Shown: positions 54,748-64,000, numbered from the stretch's first letter. The stretch: 64,000 nucleotides of DNA from Myxococcota bacterium (GCA_036012755.1 DASCPX010000087.1:1-64000); one strand, 5' to 3'. Made by a program: numbers and translations. Notes: a model not told the origin generated them from the letters alone.

Positions 54748-56542
54748 CGGCCCAGTCCTCGCCGCGCAGCACCACCACGAGCCACCGCTCGGCGCTCACC
54801 CGGTGCCAGCCGGCGCCGCTGGCGACGAGACCTCCATCAGCCCACAGCTCGGCGTCCACCGAGAGGTAGACCCGGTAGCCAGGGGTCGGCAGGGTGGCTT
54901 CCTGGACTTCCCACGAGAAGTACGGCCCAGTGGTGGCGAGGCTCTGGCCGGTCACGAGCCCGCGCTCCATGGCGGCCACCGAGGGGAGACCCGCAGAGGT
55001 GTCCGCGGGAGTCCAGGTCAGCGGCCCCGCGACCCCCACCCGCAGTCCCTGGTCCAACAAGCCGAAGTAGGTGTCGAGGTCGTCGAGGGATTCCAACAAC
55101 AGCAGGTCCGGATCCTCGGGCCACAGCGCCGAGTTTCCAGCAGCCTCCACCCACGTCGCGTCGACGACGAGGACGCGGTTCGGCGAGTCGTAGCCGTCGG
55201 CGACCGCGAGCAAATCGCTGGCGTCGAGCCCCTCCCAGCGTACGGCGCCGTGCCCGGCTCGCTTGTCGTTGGCGGACCAGGGCCAGGACCAGACCCGGCC
55301 GACATCAGCGGTGAGCGCCAGCGAGCCCACCCTGACCCGGGCCTCTCGGCTCGTCCAGTCCGACTGGTAGGGCCGGCCGATCTCGTCCGGGGGGGCCTGG
55401 ACGATGAAGTCGATGCCCCCTGCCGCGGCGATCTCGATGTCCTCGTTCTGCTCCACGCGCGAGACCCGCGAGGGGAAGGGGGCGCGAAACAGGTCCGCCA
55501 GCACGAGGTCTCCTGGCACGAGGCGCTCGAGCACGACCTCCAGCGAGACGCTTCCCGAGACCTCGACGGTCTCGGACCACTCGGTGTACCCGGGGCCGTG
55601 GTGGACGCGCACCTCGAAGGTCCCCTCCCCCGTCGGCACCGCCGCGCGGCGAGTGACGGGGGTCTCCTCGTCGCCGACCTCTACGACGACGGGGAGCTCG
55701 TGGCCCTGCTCGTCGACGGCGCGCACGAGGAGCTCACCGAAGCCCCCGAGGGGCAGGGTGAGCCCCTCGCCGACGACAACGGGATCTCCGTCGGTGTAGC
55801 CGCTGGACCGGCAGACCAGGGTCTGGGAGGACTCCGGGACGACGGCGTCGAACTCGGGGGCCAGGATGGCCACGCGCTCGCCGGCGCCGTCGAGCACGTC
55901 GACCTGGTCGCCCTCGCAGGAGCCCGAGACAGGATGGGTGTAGAGCTCGCGCCGGACCTCGTCCCAGGGTCCGACGAGGACCCGCGTGACGCCGTCGATC
56001 CGCTGGGCGCCACCGAGGTCCTCGACGAGCACACCGTCCGTGCCGTAGAGCAGGTCTCCGCGCACGAAGTCGGAGCCCAGGGCGAGCGAGCGCCGGTCCC
56101 CGTGCAGCCACAGTCCGTCGGCGCCGGAGACCTCGAGCCAGGGCACGTCGGGGGGCAGCGTCCAGCGCACTGATCCGACCTGGATGAAGTCCTCGCCCAG
56201 CTCGGTCTCGACCCCTTGGTTCCAGCCCCCGTCTACGACCGGCACCGCCTCCCAGAGCCGATCCCAGTCCCCGACCGGGGCGAAGTCGACGAGGCTGCCG
56301 CCAGGAGCGCCCAAGACCGTGAGCGACTCGCTGGGAGAGCGGATGACGGCGGTGACCATCGAGTTCTGCATGACCCAGTCGCCACGACGCGCGTCGCCAC
56401 TTCCGGGTCCTTCGTCATCGCAGCGCCAGGCCTTGACCCTGACCTCGCCCTGGCCCAGCACGACCGGGTCGCAGCCGGCGACCAGGCCGGTGTCGACAGC
56501 CCCGGGGGGAGCGCAGCCGACCAGGGCCGACAGCAGGCTCAG
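54719..56542 (-). CDS. CehA/McbA-like protein with degenerate PHP domain (start uncertain)
   Basis: GDWVMQN..V..VI, GGSLVD, HGPGY, LADL....S..S....AAAGGIDFIV, TTGP architecture; metal-binding His residues absent. Confidence 0.6.
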   Translation of the reverse strand: MSLLSALVGCAPPGAVDTGLVAGCDPVVLGQGEVRVKAWRCDDEGPGSGDARRGDWVMQNSMVTAVIRSPSESLTVLGAPGGSLVDFAPVGDWDRLWEAVPVVDGGWNQGVETELGEDFIQVGSVRWTLPPDVPWLEVSGADGLWLHGDRRSLALGSDFVRGDLLYGTDGVLVEDLGGAQRIDGVTRVLVGPWDEVRRELYTHPVSGSCEGDQVDVLDGAGERVAILAPEFDAVVPESSQTLVCRSSGYTDGDPVVVGEGLTLPLGGFGELLVRAVDEQGHELPVVVEVGDEETPVTRRAAVPTGEGTFEVRVHHGPGYTEWSETVEVSGSVSLEVVLERLVPGDLVLADLFRAPFPSRVSRVEQNEDIEIAAAGGIDFIVQAPPDEIGRPYQSDWTSREARVRVGSLALTADVGRVWSWPWSANDKRAGHGAVRWEGLDASDLLAVADGYDSPNRVLVVDATWVEAAGNSALWPEDPDLLLLESLDDLDTYFGLLDQGLRVGVAGPLTWTPADTSAGLPSVAAMERGLVTGQSLATTGPYFSWEVQEATLPTPGYRVYLSVDAELWADGGLVASGAGWHRVSAERWLVVVLRGEDWAVSSPHWLDF

Positions 56543-57291
56543 TCCCCCTCGAAGGTGACCGAGATGGGCACGAGCCGCGCTTTCTTGGACCACCCTACGG
56601 CTTCGGGAGCCATGTCCGTGTACCAGTAGGCGCGCGTCTCGCCAGGCTTGACCGGGACCTTCCACTCTTCCTCGATGGGCATGTTGCCGGGAGCCTGCGG
56701 AGCCACCAGCGGCCAGCGGTCCTTGTCGATCACGTTGCCCTCGATGTCGAGGTACTGCAGCTCCATGTTGAGCGTCGTGATGGTCCTGGTGCCCGTGTTC
56801 GTGACCTCTGAGGTGAAGAGGTAGCCGTCGAGGGCCCCATCGGGGTCCTCTGCGAGGTTCACGGGCTCGATCTCGACCCGCCCGATCTCGAGCTGGTCGA
56901 CGTATGCGTTCATGGCGACCCGGCGGCGGGCCTCCTGCTTGCGCTTCTTGCTGCCCTTCGGGTACTCATCGAGCCAGGTCTGCCAGGCCTCGACGGAGTT
57001 GCTGTCCTCGGCCCAGGCGTAGAGGAACTCCTCCCGCTCCTCGACGGCGATCTCGGCGAGCTGGGACTTGGGGTTGCCCTGGTACATCTCGAGGTAGTGG
57101 TCGTAGGCCTCGAGGGTCTTGTCCTTCCGAGCCTTCTCCAGGTACAGCTCCTCGAGGCGGATCTCCGCCATCGTGATGCTGGGGCTGTTGGGCGCGGCCT
57201 GGATGAAGGCCTCGTAGGCCTCGATCGAGTCGGCCTTCTGGACCTCGTGGAAGGAGGGGCCACAGGCGAGCAGGGCAAGGAGCGCGAGCAT
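56539..57291 (-). CDS. Lipoprotein with 'EAY..YL..YP' helical repeats and a C-terminal beta domain
   Basis: MLALLALLAC; SIEAYEAFI, TLEAYDHYL, SVEAWQTWLDEYP; EVTNTG...LQYLD..G. Confidence 0.75.
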   Translation of the reverse strand: MLALLALLACGPSFHEVQKADSIEAYEAFIQAAPNSPSITMAEIRLEELYLEKARKDKTLEAYDHYLEMYQGNPKSQLAEIAVEEREEFLYAWAEDSNSVEAWQTWLDEYPKGSKKRKQEARRRVAMNAYVDQLEIGRVEIEPVNLAEDPDGALDGYLFTSEVTNTGTRTITTLNMELQYLDIEGNVIDKDRWPLVAPQAPGNMPIEEEWKVPVKPGETRAYWYTDMAPEAVGWSKKARLVPISVTFEGD

Positions 57292-57315
57292 CGTTCTCTC
57301 CGGCGAGAAGAGCGA

Positions 57316-58038
57316 CTAACCGGCCAGCGTCGCCACGATGAGCACGACGACGAGCGCGACCTGCTGCGCGGCCCCGAGCACATCTCCGGTGAGCCCACCG
57401 ATTCGGCGCCGGGCGTGCCAGGAGATCAGCCCGCTGGTGCCGGTGACGGCGAGCAGGGCCGGAAAGAACCACCAGCCGAGACACCAGAGCCCGATGATCC
57501 CCGAGAACAGCCAGGCGAGAGCCAGGCCCTTGCCGCTGAGGCGACCGCCCATGCGAGCGAGGAGGCCGTCTTCACGAGCAGGTCGGGCGGATGCCACCAA
57601 GGTGGTGAGCACGGCCCTGGAGACGACATGGGCGACGATCAGCCCAGAAGCGCCGGTGAGCGCGGAGACCGCTCCGACCTGCAACAGCAGCGAGAGCACG
57701 ACCGCGACCACGCCGTAGGTCCCGAGCATCGAGTCCCGCAGGATGCGCAGCTGGCGCTCGGCGTCCCCGCCCGCTCCGAAGGCGTCAGCGGTGTCGGCGA
57801 GGCCATCGATGTGGAGGGCACCGGTGAGGAAGACCCCGGCTGTGACGGTGAGGGTGGCCCCGAGCCACGCTGGCAGGCCACCGAAGATCCACCACACAAC
57901 GGCCAGGATCAGCCCGACTCCCAGCCCCACCAGCGGGTAGAAGGGCGCGCCGCGCCGGAGATCCTCGTCGGTGATGTCCCCGTACACGGGCACCGGCACG
58001 CGGGTGAGCACGACGATGGCGACGATCAAGGCACGCAC
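57316..58038 (-). CDS. cobS: Adenosylcobinamide-GDP ribazoletransferase (cobalamin synthase)
   Basis: LTRVP, FYPLVG, TGALHIDGLADTAD, ILRDSMLGTYG, IGGLTGDVLGA. Confidence 0.93.
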   Translation of the reverse strand: MRALIVAIVVLTRVPVPVYGDITDEDLRRGAPFYPLVGLGVGLILAVVWWIFGGLPAWLGATLTVTAGVFLTGALHIDGLADTADAFGAGGDAERQLRILRDSMLGTYGVVAVVLSLLLQVGAVSALTGASGLIVAHVVSRAVLTTLVASARPAREDGLLARMGGRLSGKGLALAWLFSGIIGLWCLGWWFFPALLAVTGTSGLISWHARRRIGGLTGDVLGAAQQVALVVVLIVATLAG

Positions 58039-58051
58039 GAGACCGAGGCTA

Positions 58052-58672
58052 CTACTCCTCGTCGAGGACCTCGACCAAGCGGTCCCGAACCCGAAGCACG
58101 AAGCGGTCCCAGCGCTGCCCGGGCCCGTGGCCGAGCAGCCTCTGGAGCCCGGCTTCCTGCTCCGGAGCAGTGGGGAGCCTGGCGATCGATCCGAGCTCCT
58201 CCAGCGCATCCACAAACGGCATGCTGAGCGCGTGGCCGAGCGTCTTGGACAGCGGGTGACAGAAGTGCTTCAACACCGCGAGGCGCTGGGCGGCGTAGGC
58301 CGTGTAGGCCGGCGGGAGCTCGCCCAGGCGGGGCACGAGCACCCTCGCAGAGTTCTCGACCCGCTCCCAAGGATCGTAGCGGCGCCTGCCGTCGACGATC
58401 GGTGGGTACAGGGTCCTGCGGCGTGCTGCCTTTCTCGCGAGGGTGTTGAACCTCTTGAGCAGGGCTGCCTTGCAATAGGCCTTCGGAGCGTCGATGCCCC
58501 CCTTGGCAAGGGCCTCCGACAGTGGCTTGCAGGTGTCCTGGACGAGCTGGTCGGCCAGCTGGGTGCTGATCGATCGCGCCTCTCGGAAGAGCAGCGGGCG
58601 CAGAGCGGACGCAATGGGGGCGGCCTCACCAGAGGCGTGGAGCTTTCGGATGGCATGCCAGCCCGCGTCCAT
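58052..58672 (-). CDS. Divergent ECF sigma-factor-like protein
   Basis: LFREARSI...ADQLVQDT...PKAYCKAALLKRFNTLARKAARR resembles sigma70 region 2; C-terminus RVRDRLVEVL resembles the end of region 4. Confidence 0.5.
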   Translation of the reverse strand: MDAGWHAIRKLHASGEAAPIASALRPLLFREARSISTQLADQLVQDTCKPLSEALAKGGIDAPKAYCKAALLKRFNTLARKAARRRTLYPPIVDGRRRYDPWERVENSARVLVPRLGELPPAYTAYAAQRLAVLKHFCHPLSKTLGHALSMPFVDALEELGSIARLPTAPEQEAGLQRLLGHGPGQRWDRFVLRVRDRLVEVLDEE

Positions 58673-58793
58673 TACAATAGTCTTACCTGCTCGACCTGAC
58701 ACTACACGGTCGCCAGCCCTCCAGCAACAAACTACCGAATATCGCTTGCAACAGTTGGTCGCTCCAGTGTTCGTCTCCCAGGTCGCGGCAGCC
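58673..58793. promoter_or_regulatory. AT-richer divergent intergenic region
   Basis: About 120 bp with visibly lower GC between two divergent starts; no specific site assigned. Confidence 0.45.
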
Positions 58794-61700
58794 ATGGCTG
58801 CTCACGGCGATCCGAAGATCGCCGAGCGGTATGCGCCCGGAGGGGCGCGCCTTGCCCACTACGAACGCGTCGCCTCTTCGCTGCTGCGGAGGCTCGGGGG
58901 AGACGCCGGGATGGCAGGGCTCCTGCACGGCTGCCCGGACGATCTGCCCGAGGCGGTCGAGGCTGCGATCTCGCCAGGAGCTCGCGGGATCCTCCGCGAC
59001 TACGAGCGCCTCCGCGCGCCCTTCCTGTCTCCCGACTCGATCCCTGGCCTCGGGCGTCGCATGATCGAGGAGATGCTCCCCGAGGTGAGGCGGCCAGAGG
59101 CCATCGCCCTCCTCCTCTGCGAGCAGCGCGACCACCTCGACCCCACCGGAGAGCTGACCGGGTGGCTCGTCGCCATGCACCGAGAGCCGGAGCTCGTCTG
59201 TGAGCTCCCTCCACGCGGCCTCGTGCCGATGGTGCGCGAGTTCTCGCTTCACCTCGAGTACGCCGAGGTGGGTCTCTGTCCACTGGCGGAGGAGCTGGGG
59301 CTGTTCTTCGACCGCAACCGGCTCGATGATCTCGTACTCCTCCATCGTGATCCGGATCGGGCCCGGAGGATTCGCCAGTTCGTCGCCGACCAGGCAGGAC
59401 CGGGCGGACTCGCCGCGCGGGGAGCGGAGAAAGTCCGAAACCTGTTCCTCGCCTCGGAGAAGGCCCGCGAGTCCATCCTGAGCTGCAACTGGGAGTGGCG
59501 GCACCTCGGGCGTCTCTCTCGCGTGCTGGGCCCTGACGAGACCGGCTGGGAGAGGCAGCTCCGCCTCTGCGGCTTCGTGACCATCAAGTGCAGCGGCAAG
59601 AGCGCCGCATACCGTGCGCTCGGAGCCCTTCATCAGCTCCGACGCTGCGACCCCAGCGCCTTTCGGGACTACATCTCCGCCAAGCGCATCAGCCAGTACC
59701 GCGCCATCCACACGGCGATCGCGGTCCCGGAGATCGGCGTGGACGGGCCCTTTCCGGTGCGGCTGCTCGCGAGCCAGAGCGCCGAGTCCCGCTACCACGA
59801 GGTCGGGCCGGACGACCTCGGGCAGATCCGCCCGAGGTTGGGACCGCAGCGCTCCGACGCCGACCGCTTCACCGCCTACACCCCGGCAGGAGAGGTGAAG
59901 CGACTGCCCCACGGGGCGGCGGTCCTCAACTTCGCCCTGGAGGTCCACCGGAGCTGGGTCTGCCTGGTCGATCACGCCGTCGTCGCCGGCGAGCACCGAG
60001 GTCTCCTCGACCCCGTCCACGAGGGCGAGGCCGTCGATCTCGTCCTGTTGCCGCAGCCCAGGCCCCTGCCCAAGGGCTGGAAGAAGGCGACCCCCCAGAG
60101 CACCCACGCGGCGATCAAGGCCGGAGCCCGGCGCGCGATGCACGAGCAGCGCCACAAGCAAGGACTGGACTGGGTCGCCATGAAGCTGCAGGAGTCGGGC
60201 ATCGAGGTGGCCCGCGAACGCATAGAGGACTTCGTCGCGGAGGCCGCACGCCAGGCCGCTGCTCGGGAGAAGCTCATCTCGAGCAAAGGAAGCAAGGGGT
60301 CCCCGGGCGGCTGGTGGCTGCGCCAGATCGGGATCCTCCAAGCCCATCGACAGGGAGAACCCACCTACACGAAGGTCGCGATCCAGGAGCATCACCTCGA
60401 CGTACTGCTGCGGACGCTTTGCCGGATCACGGGGACGGTGCTCGACCTGGACTTCGACGCCGAGCTCCGCCTGGGCACCGAGCGCTTCGTCGACTGCGCC
60501 CGCTGCGTTCCCGATCGGGACGGTCCCCTGGCTGTCGTCCGGAGTGGCAAGGAGCTGCGGTTCCACCGGGCAGGCGCCCCCTGCGCTGCAGGCGCCAGCG
60601 AGGTCCGGACGGTGCGCTGGGCGGTCGCACGCCACTACGTCTTGATCGAGGGGAGCAACCGGAAGGGGCTGTTCCGCGATGTCCTCGACGACGTGCGGGA
60701 CCTCGAGCTGGACGTGATCGACTTCGTCGGCCGCCGCTTCGGGCGCAACTGGGCCGTCGCCCGGCTCGAGCTGGACTGCAACGACAGGCGCGTGCTCGAC
60801 GAGCTCGTCCGCCACCTGCAGCGCGTCAGGGGTGTCACGCGAGTGCTCCTGGACGAGCGAGACCCCTTCCTGGAGAACGGCCTGCCCGATCGCCTGGAGG
60901 ACAACCAGCTCCCGGGAGCGGGGGTCCGGGGCAACCCCTACGTACGCGGCGGACCGGTCTACCGGGACGAGAAGTTCTATGGACGAGAGCTGGAGTTCCA
61001 CACGCTCCTCGGGCTCCTCGCCGATGTCCGCCAAGGCGGCCAGATGGCCTGCATCGAGGGGCCGCTGAAGGTCGGAAAGACCTCGCTGGCGCACCGGGTG
61101 CTCAGAGAGGTCAGCCGCCACGCGGACCTCTGGATCCCGGTCTACTACACGACACCCCACGGGACGTCGTGGTCCAGCCGGTACCGGGCTCCGGGAGTGG
61201 ATCTCCCCCCCGCCCGAGACGCCATCGCAGAGCTCCTGGCGCGCTCGGCGGCAGAGGCGGTCCGTCGCCGTGGACTCACCAGCAGCGTGCCCGAGTACGA
61301 CTCACTCGACGACCTCCTGAAGAAGCTGCTGCAGTGGCCAGAGCGCCCGCGCATCGTCCTGGTCATCGACGAGGCCGCGCGCCTTGCGCTGAACTCGGTC
61401 GAGGAGCTGTCCGCTCGAAAGGAGAGCAACACGGGCATCGAGAAGCGAATCGAGGAGGGCCAGCGGGACATCACGCTCGCCGAGCTGGAGCTCCGACCCT
61501 CTGCCAGGCCTGACGCCGACGACCTGGCGCGCTTCGCCCAGAGCGTGGTCTCCAAGCCCGGGCTGGCGGTGATCTGGGTCGGTCCCACGCCTTCGTTCGC
61601 GTCGATCCCCAGCGGCCTCTCGCTGCGTCACGAGCTCTACACGTCCGTTCGACGGATCCCTCTCGGCGCCTTCGGGATCACCGAGGTCGGCCTGCTTCTG

Positions 61701-62138
61701 TCAGCGAAGAAGCTGCGTCCAGCCTCACCGATCCGCTTCCTCGACATCACGCTCCAGGACGTGCACCGGCTCACCGGTGGTGACCCCCTGTTCGTCGGCG
61801 CCATCGCGGACGAGCTGTGGAGTGGTCGACCGGAGGAGGGCTCGCTGGAGTACAGCCCCGAGATGGTGGCGCGCGCTGCCGATCGTGTCCGGAGATTCGG
61901 CTACGAGCTGGACTGCCGGATCGGGCAGTTCGGTCCCCTGCGCCTGCTCGGGCAACAGCTGCTCCAGGGGATGGTGGAGCGCCCCCATCGACCGACAGAT
62001 CGGCTCGACGGAGTCGCACCAGACCTGCACCGACACCTCCTCGACATGCTCTGCATGGCCGGTCTCGCCGTCGTCGACGAGGACGAAGACCATCGGCTTG
62101 CCGCACCCCTGATGAAAAAGTACTTGGGGGCGCTGTGA
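58794..62138 (+). CDS. Degenerate long RelA/SpoT homologue (HD-SYNTH-TGS-helical-ZFD-ACT) fused to a STAND-like P-loop NTPase, 1114 aa
   Basis: AGLLHGCPDD; AYRALGALH...FRDYIS.KR.SQYRAIHT; YTPAGEVKRLPHGAAVLNFALEVH; CARCVP...FHRAGAPC; GSNRKGLFRDV...LQRVRGVTRV; NPY..GGPV...FYGRE; GPLKVGKT; IVLVIDE; TGGDP. Confidence 0.85.
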   Translation: MAAHGDPKIAERYAPGGARLAHYERVASSLLRRLGGDAGMAGLLHGCPDDLPEAVEAAISPGARGILRDYERLRAPFLSPDSIPGLGRRMIEEMLPEVRRPEAIALLLCEQRDHLDPTGELTGWLVAMHREPELVCELPPRGLVPMVREFSLHLEYAEVGLCPLAEELGLFFDRNRLDDLVLLHRDPDRARRIRQFVADQAGPGGLAARGAEKVRNLFLASEKARESILSCNWEWRHLGRLSRVLGPDETGWERQLRLCGFVTIKCSGKSAAYRALGALHQLRRCDPSAFRDYISAKRISQYRAIHTAIAVPEIGVDGPFPVRLLASQSAESRYHEVGPDDLGQIRPRLGPQRSDADRFTAYTPAGEVKRLPHGAAVLNFALEVHRSWVCLVDHAVVAGEHRGLLDPVHEGEAVDLVLLPQPRPLPKGWKKATPQSTHAAIKAGARRAMHEQRHKQGLDWVAMKLQESGIEVARERIEDFVAEAARQAAAREKLISSKGSKGSPGGWWLRQIGILQAHRQGEPTYTKVAIQEHHLDVLLRTLCRITGTVLDLDFDAELRLGTERFVDCARCVPDRDGPLAVVRSGKELRFHRAGAPCAAGASEVRTVRWAVARHYVLIEGSNRKGLFRDVLDDVRDLELDVIDFVGRRFGRNWAVARLELDCNDRRVLDELVRHLQRVRGVTRVLLDERDPFLENGLPDRLEDNQLPGAGVRGNPYVRGGPVYRDEKFYGRELEFHTLLGLLADVRQGGQMACIEGPLKVGKTSLAHRVLREVSRHADLWIPVYYTTPHGTSWSSRYRAPGVDLPPARDAIAELLARSAAEAVRRRGLTSSVPEYDSLDDLLKKLLQWPERPRIVLVIDEAARLALNSVEELSARKESNTGIEKRIEEGQRDITLAELELRPSARPDADDLARFAQSVVSKPGLAVIWVGPTPSFASIPSGLSLRHELYTSVRRIPLGAFGITEVGLLLSAKKLRPASPIRFLDITLQDVHRLTGGDPLFVGAIADELWSGRPEEGSLEYSPEMVARAADRVRRFGYELDCRIGQFGPLRLLGQQLLQGMVERPHRPTDRLDGVAPDLHRHLLDMLCMAGLAVVDEDEDHRLAAPLMKKYLGAL

Positions 62139-63307
62139 CCAACGACCTGCCAGCCTACGAGCCCTACGACCTGCGCACGCGTGAGCTCCGGGATCACCTC
62201 GAACACGAGCGGCTGATGCTGCTCTTCGGCCCCCGCCGGTTCGGCAAGTCACTCATGCTGGACCGGCTCGCAGAGGGCACCGGCATGAAGAAGGTGCGGG
62301 TCGAGGGGCGTCACGGAGGCGTGCCTCCCCTCCCCGACGAACCGGTCACGATCCTGGTAGACGACATGGACTACCTGGTCGCGGGGTCCGGAGGGGCAGC
62401 TCTGGACTCGCTGATCTCGCAGGTGTTCACGAACCCGAAGCACCGACTGGTCGCCACGAGCGGGACGCCGCGCCGTGAGCTCGCTCGCGACCTGGACTCG
62501 AGCTGTGCTTCCTGCTCGGCGCTGCTGATGAACCACTCCCGCTTCCTCGTGCCCTGGTCCGTGGGCTGGGAGCGCCACATCGACGAGGCCTTCCCCGCAG
62601 ACTGGGGTGGCGCCGTGGCTCGGGTGACCGGTGGCTACCCCGAGCTCGTGAACATCTGTCGGAGCGTGGTGTGGACGGCGGACCGCGAGGGGTTCCAGGA
62701 CGAGGGCGAGCGGGACGCGGCCGTGCTCGCCATGCTGCAGAAGAGGTCACCGGCGATCACCTCCATGGACCGACTGCTCCGGCGACTGGACGAGCACCAC
62801 CCCGCGGCCTGGGCCGCACTCCAGCGGACCGTCGAGGGCTCGAAGCGCAGCCCCCACGAGGAGTACGTGTCCGCGTGGGTGGCCCATGGCCTCGCCATCG
62901 ACGGCGGTCTTGGCGATGCCGTCATCGCTCCTGGGGCCTACCTGCGCTGGCGCATCCCGCACTACGAGCCGCTCGAGCGCGAGATCACCGACAACGCCCC
63001 CTTCAGCCTCGTGCCAGAGGGACCTTCATCGGGCAAGGCGGTGATCAGCGGGCCGGGCGGCGACACGCGCACGGTGAAGCTGCGCAAGAAGAAGTGGCAG
63101 CTCGTCCAGGTGCTCCACGAGCACCGGAGCTTCATGTCCGGTGCCCAGCTGCGCGACATCCTGGACCTGGACACGGACGCCGGGCTGCGTTCCCTGGTGG
63201 CGCGCACACGCAAGACCTTCAGCGACCAGCGCGTCGAGGGTGTGATCCTCAACCGCTACGGTGGCGGCTTCGGCCTGGGCGAGCCGCGCCTGCGCCCCAA
63301 GGGCTGA
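62135..63307 (+). CDS. STAND-like P-loop NTPase with C-terminal OmpR-type winged-helix domain, 390 aa
   Basis: GTGA overlap with upstream gene; GPRRFGKS; TILVDDMD; TGGYPELV; LRKKKWQLVQVL...LRSLVARTRK...ILNRYGGGFGL. Confidence 0.8.
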   Translation: MTNDLPAYEPYDLRTRELRDHLEHERLMLLFGPRRFGKSLMLDRLAEGTGMKKVRVEGRHGGVPPLPDEPVTILVDDMDYLVAGSGGAALDSLISQVFTNPKHRLVATSGTPRRELARDLDSSCASCSALLMNHSRFLVPWSVGWERHIDEAFPADWGGAVARVTGGYPELVNICRSVVWTADREGFQDEGERDAAVLAMLQKRSPAITSMDRLLRRLDEHHPAAWAALQRTVEGSKRSPHEEYVSAWVAHGLAIDGGLGDAVIAPGAYLRWRIPHYEPLEREITDNAPFSLVPEGPSSGKAVISGPGGDTRTVKLRKKKWQLVQVLHEHRSFMSGAQLRDILDLDTDAGLRSLVARTRKTFSDQRVEGVILNRYGGGFGLGEPRLRPKG

Positions 63308-63308
63308 G

Positions 63309-63791
63309 TCACCCCGGGGCAGGCAGCAGGACCCACTGCGAGGCCTGCACGGCCAGCCAGACCGGACGCATGGGGTCCTCGCAGAGGGGTGGAGCTTTTG
63401 CGAGCAGGGCCTGGGCGTCCTCGGCGTAGGGAGCGAAGCGCTCCGGGAGGGCCACCACCGCGCGACGAGCGAGGTCGAACTCCAGCGCGTGGGCGTCGGT
63501 CCAACCAAGGAAGCTCAGGGCAGCGGCCACGCTGTCGAGGTTCTCCAGGATTCTCCGGGCGTCGCCTGTCCGTAGGCCGTCGACCAGGGCGCCCGGGTCG
63601 AGGCCGTCTCGGGCATCGGCGACCGTCTCGCCGTGAGCTTCACGCCACGCAACAGCCTCGAGGACCAGCGGGTCGTCGGCTTCAAACCGGGCCAGAAAGC
63701 CAGCGGCTTCCGCGATTCGGAGGGCGTTGTCGCCCTCCGCCAGTGCTACCCCGAGGCAGTCGCGGAGCTCCTCCTGGTCACGGCGAATCAC
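63309..63791 (-). CDS. Helical hypothetical protein, convergent on the NTPase operon
   Basis: AGGAG RBS before GTG 63791; protein-like Ala/Leu/Asp-rich sequence. Confidence 0.55.
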   Translation of the reverse strand: MIRRDQEELRDCLGVALAEGDNALRIAEAAGFLARFEADDPLVLEAVAWREAHGETVADARDGLDPGALVDGLRTGDARRILENLDSVAAALSFLGWTDAHALEFDLARRAVVALPERFAPYAEDAQALLAKAPPLCEDPMRPVWLAVQASQWVLLPAPG

Positions 63792-64000
63792 GGCATCTCC
63801 TGAAACAAGGATATGACGGGCCGCGCGGACCGTGACGTACAGGGGGGGTTCAAGTCGCTCGAATCCTGTGATTACGCAGGGTTGTATCGACAGGTGTCGA
63901 GATCCGGCCCTCATGACGTCCTGGGAATCCTCACGAAGGAGTCCCAGTGCAGCCCCAGAACCCCATCCTCGACTCCCTCCGCGACAACTCCGACCACCTG

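Follow-up and report, generated by a model that had tools for sequence, protein, structure and literature searches.

A conserved gene pair joins a predicted RelA/SpoT pseudoenzyme to paralogous STAND-type ATPase modules and a putative winged helix

We identified a conserved two-gene unit, A–B, in a window of 64,000 nucleotides from a Myxococcota bacterium (GCA_036012755.1, DASCPX010000087.1:1-64000; the window is the whole stretch of DNA analysed here). Gene A encodes a predicted pseudoenzyme, in which the whole fold of a long RelA/SpoT homologue (RSH) lacks the residues that hydrolyse and synthesize (p)ppGpp and is fused to a nucleoside triphosphatase (NTPase) of the STAND type (signal transduction ATPases with numerous domains); gene B encodes a paralogous ATPase ending in a putative DNA-binding winged helix. 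The window covers the opening 64 kb of a contig of 96.7 kb from a metagenome-assembled genome (6.7 Mb, 250 contigs, 96% complete). Its GC content is about 68–70%, and many overlapping frames were resolved by codon-position GC and start-codon mapping into four genes, termed S, A, B and D (Table 1). The original prediction, made from the sequence of this window, had proposed a system comprising an RSH–STAND sensor, a STAND partner with a winged helix, a divergent sigma factor of the extracytoplasmic function (ECF) type and a convergent helical orphan. The first two held up under analysis and the last two fell away.

That one gene should carry an entire RSH scaffold was borne out by both sequence and structure comparisons. 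A aligned end to end with the genome's own Rel, with HD, synthetase, TGS, helical, zinc-finger and ACT/RRM domains in order, and phmmer searches of the PDB with A returned matches to Rel and RelA chains. On TIGR00691 (spoT_relA), A scored 53.4 bits against a curated cut-off of 499.2, and the genuine Rel encoded elsewhere in the same genome (contig C27) scored 724. Among Pfam families, TGS was matched at 25.2 bits (cut-off 22.2), RelA_SpoT at 23.8 bits and ACT_4 at 17.2 bits, the last two lying under their cut-offs of 27. An AlphaFold2 model of A built on 48 family sequences (predicted local distance difference test (pLDDT) 86, predicted template modelling score (pTM) 0.65) matched RelA on the 70S ribosome (5iqr_8) in Foldseek with an E value of 2.7e-20 over 722 columns, and further matches were to ribosome-bound RelA 5kpv_33, full-length SpoT and Rel; the N-terminal part of the model matched the catalytic N-terminal domains of Rel with template modelling scores (TMt) of 0.60–0.65.

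Catalytic residues were counted in an alignment of 48 A-family members, and the "pseudo" label of the original prediction proved apt. The Asp of the HD motif was present in 0 of 48 and replaced by Gly in 35; the two His of the HD domain were kept in 42 and 43. In the synthetase domain, the G-loop retained its Arg in one member and its Lys in none, the Mg-binding Asp was absent from all 48, and the Glu-x-Gln motif kept its catalytic Glu in one member and its Gln in none. A therefore has neither the HD His–Asp pair nor the synthetase centre of an RSH enzyme. What replaced the G-loop is a family-specific WEW[RH]H motif (W233 in 47/48, W235 in 48/48), and the appearance of these new invariant residues points to selection on the pseudo-active site. 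The adjacent nucleotide-acceptor block D..Y..HT was largely kept (Asp in 47, Tyr in 46, His in 42 and Thr in 45 of the 48). The regulatory C-terminal half, comprising the TGS, helical, zinc-finger and ACT/RRM domains that in Rel and RelA read ribosome and tRNA, is complete: position counts in the zinc finger gave Cys in 47/48 and His in 48/48, and C568, C571 and H591 were invariant in the A-family alignment. Judged by these residues, both RSH catalytic centres are dead family-wide and their loss was selected, so that A is predicted neither to make nor to degrade (p)ppGpp. In Bacillus subtilis Rel, according to the accessible part of the source, D264G abolishes synthesis and H420E abolishes recognition of the CCA end of tRNA (PMC7797070), positions that we equated with those of A by alignment only.

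Fused to this scaffold is a C-terminal module of about 390 residues. Pfam AAA_16 was matched at 46.3 bits (cut-off 32.6), and the module contains a P-loop with Walker A and Walker B motifs followed by the helical module that the GxP motif defines in STAND proteins. G761, K762, S764, D859, E860 and G996 were invariant in the 48 members, and the Walker A G756 was conserved; the GxP region has the consensus T.GnP.W, with P998 invariant in a six-sequence alignment. Foldseek matched this part of the model to the archaeal PF01637-type ATPases 2qen (TMt 0.65) and 2fna (TMt 0.63), as well as to Orc1/Cdc6. These features indicate a STAND-type NTPase, for which oligomerization is at most a prediction.

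As the original prediction had stated, Walker A, Walker B and GxP motifs recur in gene B. An alignment of nine B proteins showed a Walker A motif GxGK[ST], a Walker B motif LLIDDxDH, a GGHP motif and a C-terminal domain. Pfam AAA_16 scored 15–22 bits in B proteins, under the cut-off in every one; profile–profile alignment (hhalign) of B with the A family paired B columns 22–345 with A columns 763–1109 (probability 94.6%, E 7e-8, 282 columns), and Foldseek with B returned Orc1/Cdc6 (2v1u) and 2qen. By this alignment, B is a paralogue of the ATPase module of A. The Walker A lysine was missing from two of the nine B proteins, suggesting that the B of some lineages may partner A without hydrolysis; these two genes lie in loci L042 (4035–5504) and L044 (9353–10663), with GLG-AGTT and PGQGVHQA at the motif. 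The winged helix that the original prediction had placed in the second gene found support at the level of the family. Trans_reg_C (PF00486) was matched at 30 bits (cut-off 26.2) in the orthologue from Gemmatimonas and at 18–24 bits in four others, and a profile of the B family matched DNA-binding domains of OmpR-family proteins in the PDB (2hqn, PcoR, AdeR and RstA; E 2e-6 to 1e-4). The window's own B had no Pfam match at E ≤ 0.05; its C terminus aligned with the tail of the Gemmatimonas orthologue (E 5e-6). In an AlphaFold2 model of B (overall pLDDT 74.9) the tail was the best-modelled region: residues 290–381, a block with pLDDT of about 79–92, form a sheet, three helices and a hairpin. We conclude that the tail is probably a winged helix of the OmpR/PhoB type, with DNA binding as its predicted function. 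Prediction of a complex between A residues 700–1114 and B, run with alignments, scored 0.00, which gives no verdict and is evidence neither for nor against assembly.

A and B form a conserved two-gene unit, as established by strict co-occurrence and gene coupling. The GTG start of B overlaps the TGA stop of A as GTGA, and this kind of start–stop overlap was present in 8 of the 9 loci mapped; in each of the 10 loci inspected, the gene immediately after A was B-like. Among 401 genomes sampled from the window's phylum, eight had full-length A, the other matches there being ordinary Rel proteins of about 720 amino acids (aa). A profile of B (E ≤ 1e-12) detected exactly the same eight genomes, each time adjacent to A, and none of the other 393, although the profile was built from these same loci and its negatives alone are informative. 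The coupled operon proposed at the outset is thereby confirmed. In a sample of the phylum of Gemmatimonas, A was found in 2 of 301 genomes. Carrier genomes have a single copy of A–B.

The reach of the family became apparent from profile searches. A word-indexed search with A returned a single relative, at 27% identity, on the closed 5.3-Mb chromosome of a Gemmatimonas sp., and a pattern scan of genome contigs likewise found the Gemmatimonas locus alone. Exhaustive profile searching yielded 128 representatives at E ≤ 1e-30. Among the top 150, 124 had the N-terminal RSH, C-terminal RSH and STAND parts together; 11 had the C-terminal RSH and STAND parts alone, 10 had the two RSH parts alone (genuine Rels and fragments) and 5 were fragments. 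At least 124 clusters at 50% identity share the A architecture, and the fusion is accordingly no misassembly. Source annotations name these proteins 'hypothetical protein' or 'TGS domain-containing protein [Thermoanaerobaculia bacterium]', and one sister protein 'GTP pyrophosphokinase'; the A family is without a functional name, and its Thermoanaerobaculia member extends it to a third phylum. In metagenome scans, the protein P0124 as query found nothing and a six-row alignment found just one contig, identical to the window. The locus is present unchanged in public marine metagenome contigs, and a 2,935-bp contig from a second study's run, which may not be independent of the source, runs without a single difference across the A/B overlap and the ACT-to-STAND junction. 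Among the 20 runs listed with all or part of the stretch, none was an RNA dataset.

Related fusions suggest how this architecture arose and which parts of it form the core. Nine sister fusions (P0124, P0127, P0128, P0132, P0134, P0136, P0142, P0143 and P0145) share the C-terminal ATPase and have a far more Rel-like N-terminal half, with Pfam scores in P0124 and P0127 of 77–92 bits for HD_4 and 45–57 bits for RelA_SpoT. The HD pair is kept in most of them, in three together with the Asp of DRL.N, so some sister fusions might still hydrolyse (p)ppGpp; their synthetase G-loop and Mg-binding Asp are already degenerate. Pfam nSTAND1 was matched in some sister proteins (P0124, P0101). In a quick tree of the TGS-to-ACT region, rooted on six genuine Rels with a weakly supported root split (Shimodaira–Hasegawa-like approximate likelihood ratio test (SH-aLRT) 71), the sister fusions branched first and the dead-enzyme family formed one clade of 124 rows (SH-aLRT 97). 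Four short forms of about 740–790 aa (P0110, P0122, P0129 and P0130), which lack the HD and synthetase half and begin at TGS, formed a supported clade, and P0110 is found on three contigs of 15–30 kb. Outside the tree, genome G709 (L062, G709:C20) has a 763-aa open frame without the N-terminal half and a B-like gene directly downstream. Further 'short' representatives were placed beside full-length proteins in the tree and could reflect truncated gene calls. Since the short forms retain the ATPase and G709 retains B, the conserved core is the TGS-to-ACT part, the ATPase and B.

We hypothesize that A–B is a sensor of ribosomes and deacylated tRNA that drives a two-protein ATPase switch with transcriptional output, a reading that we infer from its domains and hold with somewhat less than even confidence. 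The C-terminal half of Rel and RelA docks on the ribosome with uncharged A-site tRNA and the protein opens, as described in the accessible parts of two papers (PMC7797070, PMC13376610). The RSH-derived part of A would sense translation stress, either as ribosomes stalled with deacylated tRNA or as some related cue from RNA or amino acids; once A opens, its ATPase module would be free to exchange nucleotide and to assemble; B would be drawn into the assembly by its own, paralogous module; and the winged helices so gathered would switch target promoters, amounting to a route from starvation to transcription that bypasses (p)ppGpp. The ligand, the assembly of A with B and the DNA targets in this scheme are all predictions from sequence. 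In its boldest form, the proposal would be a (p)ppGpp-independent stringent pathway, used in at least three phyla, in which a dead RSH on starved ribosomes fires a STAND switch with a DNA-binding subunit; this we hold possible and rather doubt. The original prediction had likewise proposed translation stress rewired to an NTPase switch with transcriptional output, and the domain make-up fits that idea, the mechanism being conjectural. Genes for aminoacyl-tRNA synthetases lay near A–B at 2 of the 9 loci with scanned flanks, which is suggestive of a sensor of tRNA charging and too few to count. The genes are leuS (L003 2804–5269) and serS (L044 2545–4026), two to three genes from A–B, and serine dehydratase genes lie beside serS in L044.

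Several observations weigh against this reading. The TGS His is present in just 26 of the 48 A-family members, with Asn in 10, so reading of the tRNA end may not be universal, and two B proteins lack the Walker A lysine. TGS and RelA domains are listed among those in the effector position of STAND conflict systems (PMC7159879), so the RSH part of A could be the output and not the sensor. No common DNA motif was seen in the upstream regions of seven A–B loci, judged by eye. The evidence for co-occurrence is weakened by the circular construction of the B profile, and the spread of the unit is patchy, both in the window's phylum and in that of Gemmatimonas. A was absent from the 11 genomes of the window's family in the phylum sample and from the two same-genus genomes searched (G405 and G406), which have an ordinary Rel alone; the other genomes of the family, to 21 in all, were searched for cobS only. 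Finally, the absence of the unit at a syntenic site and its lower GC content at third codon positions (GC3), both described below, fit accessory mobile genes such as defence systems.

The four genes of the locus do not have the same standing. S, which the original prediction took for an ECF-like sigma factor, had no Pfam family at E ≤ 10, no NCBIfam family and no PADLOC family, and sigma-70 regions 2 and 4 were not found in it. The one hint in that direction came from a protein atlas, where clusters with 17–31% of members carrying Sigma70_r2 resembled S with TM scores of 0.33–0.38; these are weak leads, and the assignment was dropped. For D there was again no Pfam (E ≤ 10), NCBIfam or PADLOC family, and atlas scores were at most 0.80. 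Both S and D are open frames with coding-like composition. tblastn found neither of them in eight other A–B loci, and S was present in 0 of 120 other genomes of the order. S and D are lineage orphans and not part of the A–B unit, and their proposed membership in the system does not survive. The compact locus does adjoin cobS, as the original prediction had it. The cobS frame that starts from TTG at 58215 is probably over-extended by comparison with same-genus cobS, which places the real start near 58036–58047, a few bases past the stop of S on the same strand; given this arrangement, S may be co-transcribed with cobS. An Rfam scan of 56000–64000 gave no match at E ≤ 1, and hence no cobalamin riboswitch lies under S. 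One sigma-70-like match was found upstream of A where shuffling predicted 0.2; it is a consensus match, marking at most a candidate promoter.

Table 1. Genes, domains and motifs of the A–B locus, in window coordinates
Feature	Position	Strand	Details
cobS	57316-58215	-	adjoins S; Pfam CobS 161 bits
Gene S	58052-58672	-	206 aa; orphan, delimited by codon-position GC and start-codon analysis
Sigma-70-like match	58650-58678	+	ATGGCA, 17-nt spacer, TACAAT; about 116 nt upstream of the A start
S–A divergent intergenic region	58673-58793		121 bp, upstream of A
Gene A	58794-62138	+	1,114 aa; pseudo long-RSH with C-terminal STAND-type NTPase (predicted)
A, residues ~1-200	58794-59393	+	pseudo-hydrolase (HD-like) domain and connecting helices; HD motif is LLHG
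A, residues ~201-350	59394-59843	+	pseudo-synthetase; WEWRH in place of the G-loop, DY...Y.AIHT block kept
A, residues ~358-690	59865-60863	+	TGS, helical, zinc-finger (C568, C571, H591) and ACT/RRM domains
A, residues ~726-1114	60969-62135	+	STAND-type NTPase; Pfam AAA_16
A, Walker A	61059-61085	+	G756, G761, K762, S764
A, Walker B (DE)	61368-61373	+	D859, E860
A, GxP motif	61779-61787	+	G996, P998
Gene B	62135-63307	+	390 aa; GTG start; STAND-like NTPase with C-terminal winged helix (predicted)
B, Walker A	62228-62251	+	GPRRFGKS
B, Walker B	62351-62365	+	ILVDD
B, GGYP motif	62630-62641	+	GxP-type
B, C-terminal winged helix, OmpR/PhoB type	~63020-63295	+	predicted; support at family level
Gene D	63309-63914	-	201 aa, or 160 aa from GTG at 63791; convergent orphan
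Next gene after D	63947-65110 (contig)		387 aa; no Pfam family at E ≤ 10

The surroundings of the unit were compared across loci and with a close relative. Neighbours in the window were cobS, a DUF481 protein, a phosphoesterase, ABC transporter genes and oxidoreductases; at other loci they included leuS, phosphoenolpyruvate (PEP) carboxylase, serS, glycosyltransferases, a sulfatase, sigma-54 activators and similar genes. In the same-genus genome G405 (L059), both flanks are syntenic at the cobS/DUF481 site, and the block S–A–B–D together with the next gene is missing, corresponding to about 58.05–65.1 kb here (L002 2052–9110) or about 6.9 kb. The G405 site instead holds a gene for one unrelated 204-aa membrane-anchored protein. 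GC3 was 0.75–0.84 in the genes of the block and 0.85–0.93 in the flanks. The absence from this site and the lower GC3 indicate that A–B is an accessory, patchily distributed trait.

These features would fit a conflict or anti-phage system, a possibility raised by the original prediction. The trigger for the STAND ATPase would then be foreign DNA or another cue, perhaps sensed by B, and the RSH module would be the effector. We consider this unlikely, as we do the more specific ideas that the module shuts down translation by occupying ribosomal A sites or binding tRNA, or that it serves as a decoy for phage factors that target RelA. In such systems the effector position is, we take it, N-terminal to the NTPase. 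The accessible text of one survey lists TGS and RelA nucleotidyltransferase domains in effector positions (PMC7159879), and that of another describes fungal NOD-like receptors (NLRs) with RelA_SpoT effector domains (PMC4986451); these precedents, the patchy distribution, the missing block and the lower GC3 speak for a role in conflict. Against it, no defence-island or mobile-element genes were found among the neighbours at the nine loci with scanned flanks, where housekeeping genes prevailed, and none of the four proteins matched any defence-system model in PADLOC-DB 2.0; A came closest to mads_8 (11.7 bits, E 0.033) and B to PDC-S01, along a P-loop stretch of 38 residues (E 0.0011). The context thus lends the anti-phage idea no support. 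A and B contain no nuclease, protease, TIR or other killing domain, a winged helix of the OmpR type is typical of transcription output, and each genome has a single copy. The joint absence of S, A, B, D and the next gene from the G405 site also bears on whether an ECF-like sigma factor S, A, B and the helical orphan D act together as a four-gene system, for which the divergence of S from A across their short intergenic region and the atlas leads to Sigma70_r2 could be cited. We think this very improbable, given that S and D have no Pfam family, do not accompany A–B at the eight other loci, that S was not found elsewhere in the order and that its stop abuts the likely start of cobS on the cobS strand.

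A different signal from the one that we favour would be a small molecule: (p)ppGpp or another guanine nucleotide could bind to the dead catalytic half, or an amino acid to the ACT domain, and so gate the ATPase and the transcriptional output of B. The conserved nucleotide-acceptor block, the invariant WEW[RH]H residues with the selection that they imply, and the HD His residues kept in most members all favour a binding site of this kind; the genuine Rel of the genome could make the signal, and ACT domains bind amino acids in other proteins. Yet the forms without the N-terminal half keep the ATPase and B, so that the dead catalytic half cannot be the essential sensor, and the best-kept RSH parts are the zinc finger and TGS, which make the ribosome and tRNA contacts in Rel and RelA. 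On balance, a small-molecule receptor seems improbable to us. That the locus is a misassembled chimera, or a Rel paralogue turning into a pseudogene, has almost nothing to recommend it beyond the fragmented assembly, from a metagenome, and the loss of catalytic residues: the architecture recurs in 124 of the best 150 representatives, including one on a closed chromosome, the frame is open, the model is confident, non-catalytic positions are strongly conserved, and the possibly non-independent contig of the second study crosses the junction without a difference. Because mixed or unforeseen mechanisms are possible, the confidences that we attach to these readings do not sum to one. The ribosome-sensing switch remains the reading that we carry forward.

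Compared with known systems, A–B combines features that are otherwise found apart. Long RSH proteins (Rel, RelA and SpoT) share with A the same domain order over about 700 residues, the fold, the Cys and His of the zinc finger and much of TGS; A differs in that both catalytic centres are dead family-wide, judged by their residues, and in having the additional C-terminal ATPase, an obligatory partner gene and a separate genuine Rel in the same genome. STAND regulators such as MalT, the AfsR/SARP-type proteins and the LAL family couple an AAA_16-type switch ATPase with a GxP helical module to a DNA-binding domain, and SARP regulators also use a winged helix of the OmpR type; assembly gated by a ligand is presumed to control transcription. 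Compared by description, they differ in that A–B distributes the sensor and the DNA-binding domain over separate paralogous ATPases, has a pseudo-RSH sensor in place of tetratricopeptide (TPR) or other repeats, and has the winged helix of B C-terminal to the ATPase. The best structural matches of the A module and of B, the archaeal PF01637-type ATPases (PabY2304, 2qen; SSO1545, 2fna) and Orc1/Cdc6, share the layout of an AAA+-like P-loop with helical and winged-helix parts after it; an RSH part is missing from them, identity is 12–17%, and their functions (replication initiation, or unknown) are unrelated.

Two bodies of work come closer to the fusion itself. Fungal NLRs (Dyrka et al. 2014) have a RelA/SpoT-derived domain N-terminal to a STAND NTPase, and as far as the accessible text describes them, this is a synthetase domain only, read as an enzymatic effector and followed by NACHT and by WD40 or other repeats (PMC4986451); they are without TGS, zinc-finger and ACT domains and without a winged-helix partner, whereas the scaffold of A is whole and predicted to be catalytically dead. 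The NTP-dependent conflict systems of Kaur, Burroughs, Iyer and Aravind (2020) resemble A–B in having TGS and RelA domains in effector positions, and the accessible text describes no long-RSH scaffold, dead sites or winged-helix partner, although its figures and supplements may differ (PMC7159879); other parts of the systems described there are missing from A–B loci. The accessible parts of two RSH surveys mention no ATPase fusion (PMC3153485, PMC7229694). Literature searches found no described bacterial long-RSH–STAND fusion, and supplements and figures could hold one; the statement of the original prediction that no such system has been described therefore stands for the literature found, tempered by the partial precedents in fungi and in conflict systems. 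A–B is apparently an undescribed form of the known STAND signalling ATPases, one that has a pseudoenzyme as a new sensor and is divided between two proteins.

In the textbook account, starved ribosomes are turned into a signal by long RelA/SpoT enzymes, and to our knowledge that signal has always been the alarmone (p)ppGpp. The A family appears to keep the sensing scaffold, to drop both enzyme activities, and to have instead an ATP-driven switch and a dedicated, putatively DNA-binding partner. If sensing has been retained, the RSH ribosome sensor would here serve for the first time as a pure receptor, and A–B would provide a new class of input for STAND regulators and a natural tool with which to part sensing from alarmone synthesis in the stringent response. 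Should the (p)ppGpp-independent pathway prove true, A–B would connect the ribosomal A site to promoters directly, by protein, in bacteria of at least three phyla; should the RSH part be an effector, it would represent a new way to target ribosomes. Starvation sensing triggers development in Myxococcota, and A–B, a compact two-gene unit with more than a hundred natural variants, may be relevant to how these bacteria sense starvation.

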